NCBI GenBank assembly: GCA_003971905.1 | Contig: RSEE01000007.1 | Location: 248,001-312,000, forward strand | Direction of reading: 5' to 3' | DNA: 64,000 nt | From: Moniliella sp. 'wahieum' | Lineage: Eukaryota | Part shown: positions 38,208 to 64,000 of the stretch, piece after piece | Numbering within the stretch: position 1 is the first letter of the stretch | Layout: the number at the start of each line of letters is the position of its first letter | Program-made: the position numbers and the translations under genes | The notes under the pieces: model-generated | Seen by the model: the letters and a program-made list of their open reading frames with translations, nothing else | Databases searched by the model: none | Told to the model about the DNA's origin: nothing

Positions 38208-40339
38208 TCCAATTTCTTCGTCCCGAATCTCGCTCTCGCTCCTTCCTGTTCTTTTCCGCTTCGCGTCATGTCCTCTGTTCTTGCTTCCTCCCCACGGACG
38301 ATTGCTACATCCCAAGGCCTAGTCTCGACTCGGGTCTCCCTCGCCTCAGCGCTCAGCCCTTCCTGTCTCCTTTTCATGTCGGAAGTCCGCGTCATCCTCC
38401 CTCTACACACAAATATAGTAGTTCTCCGGGCAGAGCCACCTCCGGGAACTGGAAGCTTCTTCTGTGAAGAAGGTTGGCTATGACTAGTATGACTGGCTTG
38501 GTTCGTTCCACGGTACCCTGCCTCCCCGTCGGGAAGCAAGAAGAAGGCACACAGACGCGCTCCCGGGTGGCAACAGGGGGAGGGCTGCTAGGCTAGGTGG
38601 GGGGCATGCTCGTGCTGCAGCTGCGGGCCAAGCGAAAGCGGATCCACACACTGGCACCAAGCTGTCGCAGCCCCGCAGACACAGACGCCAGGCAGCAGAT
38701 GCAGCCCCCACTGGCTGCGGCAGGCTGGCGCAGTGCAGGCGACAGCTGATTATGATACCCCTACCCACCCCTCCCGCATCCTACCGCTGCTCCCTATCGC
38801 CACACTGGCACCGTGCGGGTTGTCTCAGCAGCAGCTCCCAGGCGGCGGGAACCCGGCCCACCGCCCACAGACCAAAAAACCAGGAGCAGTCGTGCTTATA
38901 TCCCCTCTCCTGACCTCCTCGCTCCCTCCGCCGCCACCACCCCCGCCACTACCACGCGCTACCACCACCACTGCCACCACCCGCCACCACCGTCTTCCCA
39001 TGTCCTCCACCTATCCGTCGCAAGCTGGTCATCGTGGGCGATGGTGCCTGCGGCAAGACGTGCTTGCTCATCGTCTTTAGCAAAGGCACCTTCCCCGAGG
39101 TCTACGTCCCGACCGTATTTGAGGTACGCTCCTGTCTGCCTCTGCGCCCACTCCCCTATATGCAGAGAAGAGAGGACTGACGCACGCTCTGGCTGTCTTT
39201 GTAGAACCATGGCACGTCGATCGCTTCTTGCTGAATGCAGTGTGTCCTTGCGCGCGAGCTAACGTCCTCCCTTCCCCTCTGCCCCCGCTGTCCCGCCTTG
39301 TTGTGGCTGCAGTGGCTGAAGTGCAGGTCGATGGCAAGCACGTCGAGCTTGCGCTCTGGGACACGGCTGGGCAGGAAGACTACGACCGTCTCCGCCCGCT
39401 CTCCTACCCCGACTCGCACGTGATTCTCATCTGCTTTGCCGTTGACAGTCCCGACTCGCTGGACAATGTGCAAGAAAAGTGGATCTCGGAGGTGTTGCAC
39501 TTTGCCGTCAACTTGCCGATCCTGCTGGTAGGGTGCAAGATGGACCTGCGGCACGACCCGCGGATTGTGGAGGAACTGCGCCGCACCAACCAACGCCCAG
39601 TCACGTTCCAACAGGGAAGCAACATGGCACACACAATTGGGGCTCGCGCCTACATTGAATGCTCGGCCAAGTTGGGGACAGGCGTGCGCGAGGTGTTTGA
39701 GACGGCCACCCGCGCCGCCCTGTCCGTTAACACTGGTAAGCGTGGTACGGGCGGTGGTCGTTGCCCCTTGCTCTAGCCTTGTACCTTTTTCTTCCCTCAA
39801 TATCCTCATCACTGTTAGCCTCCTTGCGGGCTTGCTTATGTTTCTGTTTTTCATCCATACCTCCCTGCCGGCATCGCCCCCATTATAGCAACGCTTCCCT
39901 GTGCATTTGAATTGGTTTATATCCCCACGCGACTCGCACCTGCCTGTCACGGTAGCTCGTAGCACTAGCGCACGCTGCATGGTGAAGTGAGCGTTCTCCG
40001 GCAATGAGGTGTGATATGGTGGTCTGCTCTTTTGGTGGGCGTGGGTACGGTGTAACGGTCATCTCGTTCCTTGTCCTATTGTTTTCAAGAGTGGGGGGAA
40101 TGTGTACACACCCCTAACGGCAAAAAAAGTGAAATGGTATACAGAGCGATAGATACACAGCGCAAGCACAGCTTCCACGCAGAAGGCGCAGGGGAGCAGC
40201 GCCACTGGGACCGATAACCATATAGGGTAGATAGACAACACAGAGAGCATAGCTACTCTCAAAATTTCTGTCCCACAATCTATATCGGGCCTTGCGGGCC
40301 TCGCCACAAGTTCGCCGATAGATTTGAGGGGCTCAATCT
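38208..40339 (+). repeat. Duplicated RHO1 block, copy 1 (homologous to about 42877-45021 + and about 62810-64000 -)
   Basis: Near-identical upstream, intronic, coding and about 470 bp of downstream sequence, with copy-specific indels. Confidence 0.92.
39000..39776 (+). CDS. RHO1: Rho1-family small GTPase, paralog 1
   Basis: [75 protein letters not shown]...GCKMDLR...ECSAK...RCPLL* (CAAX); 7-nt microexon 39205-39211; indel near the start. Confidence 0.9.
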
Positions 40340-42684
40340 GCTAGAGTGCGACTTGGGAGCACTCGCGTTCCTATGGATCAGGTGCAAAGCAGCCTTCAGA
40401 CGGCCTGCTAGCGGAATGCTTCCGCTCGGCTAGGCGAGCGTCACCGATCCATTGCATTATAGCATGCTGCCTTTCCCTCCAGGAATCACAGCGGCTTCAC
40501 AAGCAACTGGGCCTAGGGTGATACTCACTCCTGTTTGACCAGATGCTCACACAACGGGAGGAGAGACTTTGCTGTTTCTGATGCAAACAAGAAAATGTTC
40601 TTTGTTCATACCTAGACTCGGTCCGTGGTATGTGCATGTTGCCCAGAAGCAGAGGCTGTTAAGAGAGCTTGGCCAATTGGACACATTGTCTGCAAAACCA
40701 TTGGCCCATCCCTCCAGCTGGAGACGGACCAGTTCTTTCGGTCACAGGCCGTGGCACTGTGAGGGTGCTGATGCCCTTCTTCATTTCCTCCCCGTCCCAC
40801 GTGCCTATGTCGTGCCAGGATGGAAGTCAGTAAGCCAAGAGTTTCCGCTGCCCGGGGTGGAGTGCACGGCAATTTACTGATGGCCGTCGTTGAGGTGCAG
40901 CTTTTGGTCATGTTCACCTAGGTAAGAAAGACGGTACGTGTCGTTTTGCATGTGTGAACTTCAGCAGTTTGGTCGTCTCGTCCTGGGCCGAGTTGGCCCC
41001 GATGTTGTACCACAAGTCACTGTCGGCGTCGTGTTTCCACAAGGCGGGAAGATAGGCGCGGTAATACCGAGCGGGTGAACAGGTTCCCCAAGGTACATGT
41101 GAATAGCCAGATCGCGTGGATGCTTATTGACCATCGGCTCAGTCACTTGTGCCGATCAGATCCCATCGTCCATTGTGTGGTTCTTCAATGAACCCGTCCT
41201 TTTGAGGGCCTGGACCATCGCCCTGAGCGACCAGGATTGGGATACTGTGACATCTTGGAGCGGATGGACGAGTCCGAGGACATGTATGAGGTGGAAAATG
41301 CGGTCTCGCCCGAAGGACCCAATGTATATCGTCTCCTGATACAAACTGCTCGATACACACAAGCTGGCACACCTTCTCGATTGCCTTTTAGTTTTGTTGA
41401 GCGAGTAAAGAGGCAATTTCCCTTCGGTCTTGCCCGCGACTTGTGCGAATGTGGTCTTCTCTCGCAACGAGATAGTTGGACTGGAGTATTCGTGCTGTAT
41501 ATAGCTGCTGTCACGACTATCTCAAGTGCACAACTAAAGAATCTATATATTAAACGCCCAGGCTGCAGGGGGGTGCCTAGAGCTAGCGGTTGGCGTGCGG
41601 GGGCAACACTGGCGCCATGCGGGTGGACCACCGGTGGTTGCGCCTATAACCGCACGCAGCTGCGACGATGCGCTTGCCTCACGACTACCACCACCAACAC
41701 CGCCACCGCCCCTCTCTCGCTGGCCACACACTGTGCTACCGGAGCTGGCGCCATGTGCCCGGCTCATTGCGCTACCATTATCTGCCCCCCCGCCGACGCG
41801 CTTGCTGTGCAAGCTCCTGACCTCGGTATGTCCACGCCCTCCGGGCGGATGCCTGTCGTACTGACTTGTCTGTGCGCAGCTGACGGAACCGAGTCGACCA
41901 CGCCTGGTGGCATGGTCTTGCTTGGTAGACGGTCGACGGTGACACGGTTGCCTCCGCTGGGGCTCGACGGTCAGTACCTGTGTTTTGTCCTTGTCCACCC
42001 ATTCACTGATAACGCCTTTGAGCAGGATGACTAGATGACTGGAGATGGCGCTCAAAAGTTCTGCAACAACGAACACGGACATGTGCAGGCTTGCGCACAG
42101 ATCGTCCACCGTATGTGTCGCCTGGCTCATCATTCTCTCTTTCTCGACCGCGATGACGCTTCACCCGCCCGTGCGACCTGGCCCTTGGATCTTGATTTTT
42201 GCCCTTCGGTCCCATTTCATCTCGGTGGCCCCATGATGTTTTCCCTTCGTGATTCAGCGACGAAGGCGAAGTCTCTGGCTGCCGCCGGCCTGAGGCTCTT
42301 ATAACAACCTGCCGTTGCCTTGGCCGCCTCTCTACTCCGTTCCGTGTCTGACCCTGGCAATGCATGCTTTGAAAAGTAATCCACTGCCTACTGATCTGGC
42401 AGTATGTGGCAGGCTATCCACCACCCTAGCCCCCGCCTGTCGGCAAGATTTTGCGACCCGTCCGGGGATCCCTGGTGGATAGATGGGGGATATCTGGTGG
42501 ATAGCTGGGGGCAACCTGGGGGCAAACTGTCGGGCAGATTGTCTCGACCTTGTGACGATCTTGCCGCCAGCGTCCCTTGTCGCGAGATTGTGGCAACACT
42601 GGTAATAGTCTGGCGAACACCACAGTTAATCTCGCGGCAAAAGGTCCGCGGCAACCTTGTAACCAGAAATTTCGATTAGCTATG
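40248..42684. mobile_element. Putative non-autonomous TIR DNA transposon with CATAG termini
   Basis: Left end CATAGCTACTCTCAAAATTTCTG vs right end (reverse complement) CATAGCTAATCGAAATTTCTGG; subterminal GGCAACC(T)TG/AGATTGT repeats; no TSD and no recognisable transposase. Confidence 0.6.
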
Positions 42685-62897: not shown

Positions 62898-63371
62898 CTC
62901 TCTGTGTTGTCTGTCTACCCTATATGGTTATCGGTCCCAGTGGCGCTGCTCCCCTGCGCCTTTCTGCGTGGAAGCTGTGCTTGGGCTGTATCTATCCGCT
63001 CTGTATAATACCTTTTTTCACCTTTTCGCCGTTAGGATGTGTACATTCCCCCCACTCTGAGATACAATAGGACAAGGAACGAGATGACCGTTACACCGTA
63101 CCCACGCCCCCAAAAGAGCAGGCCACCATCACACCTCTCATTGCCGGAGAGCGCTCACTTGTCGTGCAGCGTGCGCTATTAGTGCTACGAGCTACCGTGA
63201 CAGGCGGATTCGAGTCGCGTAGTGATATAAACCAATTCAAATGCACAGGGAAGCGTTGCTATAATGGGGGCGATGCCGGCAGGGAGGTATGGATGAAAAA
63301 CAGAAACATAAGCAAGCCCGCAAGGAGGCTAACGGAGATGAGGATGTTGAGGGGAAGAAAAAGGTACAAGG

Positions 63372-64000
63372 CTAGAGGATGGAGCAAATACCAGGGCCCG
63401 GAATACGGCAAATTATCATGCCTGATTTAACGGACAGAGCGGCGCGGGTGGCCGTTTCAAACACCTCGCGCACGCCCGTCCCCAACTTGGCCGAGCATTC
63501 AATGTAGGCGCGAGCCTTAATTGTGTGTGCCATGTTGCTGCCCTCTTCGAACGTGACTGGGCGTTGGTTGGTGCGTCGCAGTTCCTCCACAATCCGCGGG
63601 TCGTCCCGCAGGTCCTTCTTGCACCCTACCAGCAGGATCGGCAAGTTGACGGAAAAGTGCAGCACCTCCGAGATCCACTTTTCTTGCACATTTCCCAGCG
63701 AGTCGGGACTGTCGATGGCAAAGCAGATGAGAATCACGTGCGAGTCAGGGTAGGAGAGCGGGCGGACGGTCGTAGTCTTCCTGCCCAGCCGTGTCCCAGA
63801 GCGCAAGCTCGACGTGCTTGCCATCGACCTGCACTTCAGCCACTGCAGCCACAACAAGGCGAGACAGCGGGGGCAGAGGGGAGGGGAGGACGTTAGCTCG
63901 CGCGCAAGGATACACCGCATTCAGCAAGAAGCGATCGACTTGCCATAGTTCTACAAAGTCAGCCAGAGCGTGCGTCAGTCCTCTCTTCCCTGCATGCAGG
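63372..64000 (-). CDS. RHO1: Rho1-family small GTPase, paralog 3 (exon 1 beyond window edge)
   Basis: Microexon AACTATG (NYV) at 63944-63950, GC-AG intron, [24 protein letters not shown], tail [20 protein letters not shown]. Confidence 0.9.

Follow-up and report, generated by a model that had tools for sequence, protein, structure and literature searches.

The 64,000-nt window analysed here (positions 248,001–312,000 of contig RSEE01000007.1, hereafter C7, in the Moniliella sp. 'wahieum' assembly GCA_003971905.1, with 69.5 Mb in 223 contigs) contains three copies of a Rho1-type GTPase gene, two direct and one inverted, as an initial sequence-only reading had reported (Table 1). Comparison with the other haplotype of the same assembly confirmed that this triplication is real, that it is confined to the C7 haplotype and that its breakpoints were set by a transposon with terminal inverted repeats (TIRs). 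The best explanation for the whole locus, which we consider moderately probable, is that copies 1 and 2 arose by an alternative transposition duplication, that copy 3 is a reinserted circle or fragment derived from them, and that gene conversion and drift followed.

Assembly searches located UBA2, whose best relatives are in smut-lineage basidiomycetes (40–48% identity), and a gene of the BMS1/TSR1 family only on contigs C7 and C40, and both contigs are syntenic for around 90 kb, in opposite strands, differing by substitutions in 3.07% of the aligned bases (2,636 of 85,743). This distribution and synteny indicate that the assembly comprises two haplotypes and that C40 corresponds to the other haplotype of the C7 locus, providing a natural control. 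The C40 allele has a single Rho gene, with an open frame and a C-terminus CSIL, and the C7–C40 alignment revealed no trace of the transposon at this locus; C40 therefore retains the ancestral state, with one copy and no element. We rejected the idea that the copies are haplotype duplicates because the other haplotype is a separate contig with one copy and no element, in agreement with the earlier proposal that they are real paralogs. An assembly artefact, either from chimeric reads or from haplotypes placed in tandem, is likewise very improbable: it would be in keeping with the abundance of indels in this assembly (for every 30 kb of conserved windows, 142 non-triplet gaps in C7 and 137 in C40) and with the near identity of copies 1 and 2 within the gene, but not with the separate assembly of the other haplotype, with junctions situated exactly at the TIR ends, with the private multi-base indels and later insertions bearing their own target site duplication (TSD) found in individual copies, or with the substitutions common to copies 1 and 2 that are missing from both C40 and copy 3.

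With respect to C40, the order in C7 is native 5′ flank, duplicated block R1, transposon TE1, duplicated block R2 and native 3′ flank, and comparison with C40 and copy 3 places the new junctions (40247|40248 and 42684|42685) at the TIR termini to the base. Copies 1 and 3 enter the terminal CATAG at the identical base, where copy 2 has GAAGG, as previously noticed, although the last base of homology in copy 2 is 45022 and not 45021. An old solo long terminal repeat (LTR) is whole in copy 1 and in C40, whereas in copies 2 and 3 it is truncated around 35 bp in by the right end of the transposon; therefore, the TIR junction is the derived state. The opposite TIR does lie about 200 bp upstream of copy 2, as described, but we rejected this gap as a part of the duplication event, since it is a later insertion of a 184-bp repeat that is dispersed in the genome (251 candidates, 40 of them scored) and that appears to be similar to a short interspersed nuclear element, judging from the fixed, A-rich sequence at its 3′ end. 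The same TIR adjoins the block directly in copy 3, with no 184-bp repeat between them; together with the repeat having its own TSD, this indicates that TIR and block were initially contiguous in copy 2 as well as in copy 3, and that the repeat arrived later.

Table 1. Features of the Rho1-paralog locus, in positions of the window; window-equivalent positions are beyond the window, in the same contig.
Feature	Position	Strand	Basis or remarks
Intron-containing tRNA-Phe	37950–38049	+	ARAGORN, introns allowed; native 5′ context, same sequence in C40
Old solo LTR, ~180 bp	38173–38350 (approximate bounds)	+	Whole in copy 1 and C40
Duplicated block, copy 1 (R1)	38208–40247	+	Native 5′ flank kept; left TIR at its end
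Rho1-paralog gene, copy 1	39000–39776 (exons 39000–39123, 39205–39211, 39313–39776)	+	Pfam Ras match
TE1, internally deleted CMCT-like TIR element	40248–42684	+	CATAG...CTATG; flanks AG and TC, no TSD
Dispersed repeat, 184 bp	42691–42874	+	Genome search, flank comparison; own 8–10-bp TSD overlapping the last two TIR bases
Duplicated block, copy 2 (R2)	42877–45022	+	Passes into native 3′ flank; no footprint in comparison with C40
Rho1-paralog gene, copy 2	43751–44549	+	Near-identical to copy 1
Independent solo LTR (TG...CA)	60594–61665		C40 comparison; 5-bp TSD, absent from C40
Left part of TIR element	61721–62897	-	Left TIR at 62897; internal to position 1179 of the 3.6-kb subfamily; outer end element-internal
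Duplicated block, inverted, copy 3 (R3)	62898–64000, on to window-equivalent 65051	-	Sequence comparison; block start at 65051
Rho1-paralog gene, copy 3	Exon 3 63842–63372; exon 2 63950–63944; ATG at window-equivalent 64160	-	ATG beyond window end
Right part of TIR element	Right TIR at window-equivalent 65052; outer end ~65396		Outer end element-internal

TE1 contains around 120 bp of a foreign repeat (40339–40459) in place of its deleted part, and its right end at 42684 matches the left end found in copy 3 in 21 of 22 bases. Genome-wide, we found 39 matches to the right end (from 34 candidates) and 33 to the left end (from 31 candidates), showing that the termini also occur as independent insertions and that the element belongs to a dispersed family with around 30 copies in 69.5 Mb. 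TSDs were counted in the 17 full copies with both ends, ranging from 3.6 to 5.4 kb: 12 were flanked by a 2-bp TSD of variable sequence and the remaining five had none (binomial p = 2e-11). The transposase is frameshifted in all the copies examined, but fragments of its open reading frame contain a CxxC motif (C64 and C67 are invariant in the alignment) and an HxxxH motif; the C(2)C and H(3-4)H motifs define the CMCT clade of transposases (PMC12730594). Profile matches were scarce: four of 13 transposase homologues matched Transposase_21 below cut-off (E from 0.0015 to 0.063) and an Atlas search yielded one DUF4218 lead, on 11% of members, while two Pfam scans of transposase fragments gave no matches (0/7 and 0/4) and both a search for the transposase with the Plavaka profile and a direct homologue search were blank. 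The short TIRs starting with CA, the 2-bp TSD, the CxxC and HxxxH motifs and the weak Transposase_21 matches among its homologues are as in the CMCT clade, which includes EnSpm/CACTA, PlavakaB and ESTA (PMC12730594). Conversely, the element differs from these sublineages, as described in the same source, in its CATAG...CTATG termini, which are neither those of EnSpm (CAC...GTG) nor those of PlavakaB (CATCA...TGATG), in the lack of matches to the Plavaka Pfam profile and in that its TSD is not a fixed TA. On the basis of its TIRs, TSD and motifs, we thus designate the element as CMCT-like (CACTA/Plavaka-like), with no assignment to a sublineage. Incidentally, two element copies, one on contig C172 and one on C115, lack the terminal C/G at both ends and yet have 2-bp TSDs, which suggests a subfamily that is cut one base further in.

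The flanks of TE1, AG and TC, do not match, as already observed, although most of the full copies of the family have a TSD. In maize, duplications generated by reversed-ends transposition contain one element with the original TSD and another with a non-matching flank (PMC3744419), and TE1 fits this second type. We propose that an element of the CMCT clade, producing a 2-bp TSD, would have inserted just 3′ of the Rho1-type gene in the C7 haplotype and that, during replication, one of its ends would have joined a new target 2.1 kb upstream in the sister chromatid or the homologue (alternative, or hybrid-end, transposition), generating the structure flank-R1-TE1-R2-(TE2)-flank; the second element, TE2, would have later been lost precisely from behind copy 2 or, else, a template switch would have supplied the left element end that is found in copy 3. 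An ectopic (non-allelic) crossover between two elements in the same orientation, located upstream of the gene in one homologue and downstream in the other, would also produce R1-TE-R2 with the same junctions and mismatched flanks and with neither an outer element nor a footprint, and would additionally account for the 5′ flank of copy 1 being more distant from that of copy 2 (47/714) than from that of C40 (33/741). Nevertheless, we consider this origin unlikely: it requires two insertions 2.1 kb apart of a family with so few copies in the genome, the end types of TE1 are concordant with those of the full copies on C172 and C115, and a crossover alone leaves unexplained the left end of copy 3, which is unlike that of TE1. 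We favour alternative transposition as the origin of copies 1 and 2, because a single insertion suffices.

The copy 3 insertion spans from 61721 to around window-equivalent 65396, once the neighboring solo LTR is removed; this LTR was rejected as an end of the copy 3 cassette because it has its own 5-bp TSD. The corresponding site in C40 is essentially intact, with almost no loss of target sequence. The cassette is ordered as the 3′ part of the element, its right TIR, the gene block, the left TIR and the 5′ part of the element, with the TIRs facing inward and the outer ends mapping to 1511 and 1179 in the coordinates of the 3.6-kb subfamily, so that their order is permuted and the gap between them is around 330 bp, a proximity that two random breaks would show with a chance of around 9%. 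No TSD surrounds the cassette, in comparison with the empty site of C40, and its junctions with the chromosome lack long homology. In its 5′ flank, copy 3 shows 33/863 substitutions with respect to copy 2 and 50/726 with respect to copy 1. Its right element piece differs from TE1 in 5/274 positions, whereas its left end differs from the left end of TE1 in 9/88, which would be expected of an end derived from another copy of the element; the simplest reading is thus a former state TE1-R2-TE2, with TE2 having been lost later.

The inward TIRs, the internal and permuted outer ends and the lack of a TSD point to copy 3 being a reinserted circle, or fragment, composed of gene and transposon sequences. 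A unit comprising R2 and an element would have been released some time after the duplication, most likely as a circle formed by recombination between direct repeats, and this circle would have opened inside the element and joined the chromosome without homology, in inverted orientation and 17 kb away. Without any circle, a linear piece of TE-R-TE with the same tandem origin, cut or template-switched at a chromosome break, would yield the same product, inserted without a TSD or long homology, and abortive re-replication after alternative transposition generates such broken pieces in maize (PMC4270019); we nonetheless consider it quite unlikely because the outer ends are permuted and situated so close to each other on the 3.6-kb element. 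The sequence-only reading had attributed the amplification to alternative transposition or to composite (macro-)transposition. The first mechanism is upheld here for copies 1 and 2; the second, by which element ends would have carried the gene to the copy 3 site, agrees with the presence of element ends on both sides of copy 3, but it is largely refuted and scarcely credible, because the TIRs face inward, both outer ends are internal to the element and the site is clean with respect to C40, without an outer TIR, a TSD or a flanking deletion that could have removed them.

Several observations weigh against alternative transposition followed by reinsertion. Neither TE2 nor an excision footprint is present behind copy 2, which joins the native flank exactly as in C40, although a left element end persists at the same base on copy 3. 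Additionally, the end structure generated by hybrid-end transposition is, according to PMC2775673, nearly the same as that from ectopic recombination, and the lack of a TSD is seen likewise in five of the 17 ordinary element copies. In a chimera test, the best-matching family copy shifted along TE1, but the family itself is a mosaic. The divergence of the 5′ flank from C40 is greater in copy 2 (67/841) than in copy 1 (33/741; p = 0.005), which is not explained by a simple duplication after the haplotype split and could reflect an older duplication or one between haplotypes. As for copy 3, its distal 3′ flank is only slightly nearer to copy 2 (12/332) than to copy 1 (18/328), and the argument from the permutation has a weight of around ten-fold. 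Finally, every junction is drawn from a single, noisy assembly.

Sequence variation between copies 1 and 2 was not distributed evenly, with only 2/771 substitutions in the gene, and 3 base differences within 38999–39948, as opposed to 6.6% in the 5′ flank. This near identity of the gene next to a divergent upstream region indicates a conversion tract (38999–39948 and 43750–44719) that would have homogenised both copies; after the duplication, conversion would therefore have evened out copies 1 and 2 across the gene, with copy 3 drifting. The C7 copies have in common at least four derived coding changes with respect to C40 and to the canonical RHO1 gene on contig C24 (codons 48, 110, 133, and 140), and their duplication is thus later than the split of the haplotypes; their synonymous divergence (dS) to C40 is 0.08–0.11. 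The description of the locus as three diverging paralogs was overstated: copies 1 and 2 are nearly identical in the gene, and copy 3 evolves in a neutral-like manner (see below).

The gene at the locus is not the core RHO1, as had been supposed. Two canonical RHO1 genes, which share 79% identity and lack synteny, are located on contigs C24 and C1 and are the nearest relatives in this genome of known Rho1 proteins. The locus gene shows the same intron pattern, but it is on a longer branch and is separated from the gene on C24 by a dS of around 0.93 and a nonsynonymous divergence (dN) of 0.04. From this pattern and divergence, the locus gene is an older, constrained and lineage-specific secondary Rho1 paralog. 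Of note, a 7-bp micro-exon followed by a GC-AG intron (39124–39312 in the window) is common to all the Rho1-type genes of this assembly.

The assumption that Rho1 would be low-copy did not hold either, because all Rho subfamilies are multi-copy here. A protein tree with 22 further Rho-like loci, chosen from the stronger matches and used only for grouping subfamilies, contained six Rho2-like, seven Rac-like, five Cdc42-like, three Rho4-like and one divergent locus, with subfamily labels that we presumptively assigned from motifs. Genome-wide, there are around three paralog groups each for the Rho1-, Rho2- and Rac-like genes and two for the Cdc42-like. Rho2-like sequences that appeared with a very long branch inside the group of the locus gene were treated as an artefact, and a highly divergent Rho-like gene, also with a very long branch, occurs on contig C169 (38750–39700). 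The expansion could be a lineage-specific expansion of signalling genes or the remnant of an old polyploidy; we found no support for a whole-genome triplication as the cause of the number of Rho genes, given that the two genes surveyed, UBA2 and that of the BMS1/TSR1 family, are each restricted to C7 and C40. Several Rho1-type GTPases in a single basidiomycete are also known from Cryptococcus, which has three, Rho1, Rho10, and Rho11 (PMC8540506); unlike this set, as described there, the extra copies of Moniliella are recent, haplotype-specific, bounded by a transposon and partly degenerate. In Ustilago maydis, Rho1 has roles in polarity and cell separation (PMC7766764), and a literature search, at the level of listings, retrieved no description of a Rho expansion of this kind in this group.

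We rejected frameshifts as proof of pseudogenization, because the assembly contains around 4.7 small indels per kb (a rate from low-divergence, GC-rich windows, not all of them confirmed as coding) and because the reading frame of UBA2 is broken in both haplotypes. Around 2.8 assembly errors are expected per gene, and we observed 1, 6, and 1 small indels in copies 1, 2, and 3, respectively. Copy 1 has a 5-bp deletion after codon 4, which may be real given its rare size (8 of the 581 gaps of C7 are in this class), a GC-AG second intron and a CAAX box CPLL. The six exonic indels of copy 2 are of 1–2 bp and within the range of assembly error. The G1–G5 motifs and the CAAX box are present in both copies, in translations with X at the gaps. 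Along 177 core codons, the C40 gene retains the outgroup residue wherever the four copies differ, and the branch leading to copies 1 and 2 accumulated four nonsynonymous (N) and seven synonymous (S) changes (p = 0.006 vs. neutrality), indicating purifying selection. One of the changes in this branch is from Tyr to His at the position of RhoA Y42; Y42C is a recurrent tumour mutation of RhoA (PMC5003542).

Copy 3 has a 2-bp deletion, and its branch shows 13 N and 3 S changes, which is compatible with neutrality (p = 0.78) and departs from the C40–C24 background (p = 3e-6). Two of the replacements, Y to N and T to K, are in switch I, at sites that we take, from the motif, to be equivalent to RhoA Y34 and T37. 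The Tyr and Thr of RhoA switch I contact the GTP gamma-phosphate (PMC5379185). Judging from these changes, copy 3 is most likely decaying and its GTPase switch would be disabled. Counting against pure decay, six of its 13 amino acid changes cluster in 13 codons at and before switch I (p ~0.01, post hoc), and the C-termini of copies 1 and 3, although remodelled, remain in frame and end in a CAAX box, with an added cysteine in copy 3. Overall, the triplication likely left a single working gene, probably that of copy 2, with copy 1 being doubtful and copy 3 having a putatively disabled switch. There is also a slim chance that copy 3 is expressed, its 2-bp deletion being an assembly error, and that it was selected as a rewired Rho, that is, a young membrane-targeted pseudo-GTPase or a decoy for Rho1 regulators. 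If so, this decoy would have been born by alternative transposition of a CMCT element and reinsertion of a circle, in a lineage where the whole Rho family is expanded.

The mechanism proposed for the locus is of a known kind, of which this is a clean fungal case. As in other tandem duplications from alternative transposition, the ends of the direct repeats are transposon termini and the element at the junction has a non-matching flank, but here a CMCT-like element making a 2-bp TSD takes the place of hAT or P, and the host is a basidiomycete. Also unlike the maize case, the second, TSD-flanked element is absent from behind copy 2 and is deduced from copy 3 only; additionally, we saw no reciprocal deletion allele, C40 being the unrearranged allele. 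Composite insertions, or macrotransposons, of maize similarly consist of a duplicated host segment plus an element inserted nearby after a tandem duplication, but as presented in PMC4270019 they have the termini outside and a TSD, whereas copy 3 lacks a TSD, has its element termini on the inner side and is bordered by element-internal sequence. Copy 3 resembles the duplications mediated by circular DNA intermediates in the permuted order of blocks between donor and insertion, and in breakpoints without long homology; it differs from those in PMC7450558 in the small size of the unit (3.7 kb, ~5.8 kb originally), in its local and inverted insertion, and in that the junction of the circle would be transposon sequence. 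Literature searches on alternative transposition, with most subscription papers outside their scope, listed studies of Ac/Ds, P, VANDAL/Mutator, and impala, and no fungal CMCT case. The locus provides a natural fungal example, resolved to the base, in which the ends of a CACTA-like element duplicated a host gene; the same assembly includes the ancestral allele, and an intermediate that has since been lost seems to be preserved in copy 3. It illustrates one route by which this lineage may have acquired many Rho GTPases. In biological terms its yield is modest, unless expression of and selection on copy 3 or the variant at the Y42 position are demonstrated.

Beyond the copy 3 cassette, a gene in the minus strand for what we take to be a GATA-type zinc finger protein, from a motif read by eye, lies around 1.5–2 kb beyond the window end. 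Other matches in the window were to cerato-platanin-like (22308–22919), caspase-domain (1540–2415), aspartyl protease (13029–14410), and kinase (10596–11585) sequences, and an Rfam search of the window gave no matches. A 2.3-kb insertion at 33206–35499, with around 2.3 tandem copies of a 920-bp unit, is present only in C7 and absent from C40. A dispersed repeat of around 240 bp located 5′ of UBA2 also differs between haplotypes (59702–59816 in the window, 296030–296274 in C40 and window-equivalent -2397 to -2160 in C7). Lastly, contigs C192 and C93 show the same flanks around a solo LTR and are probably redundant.

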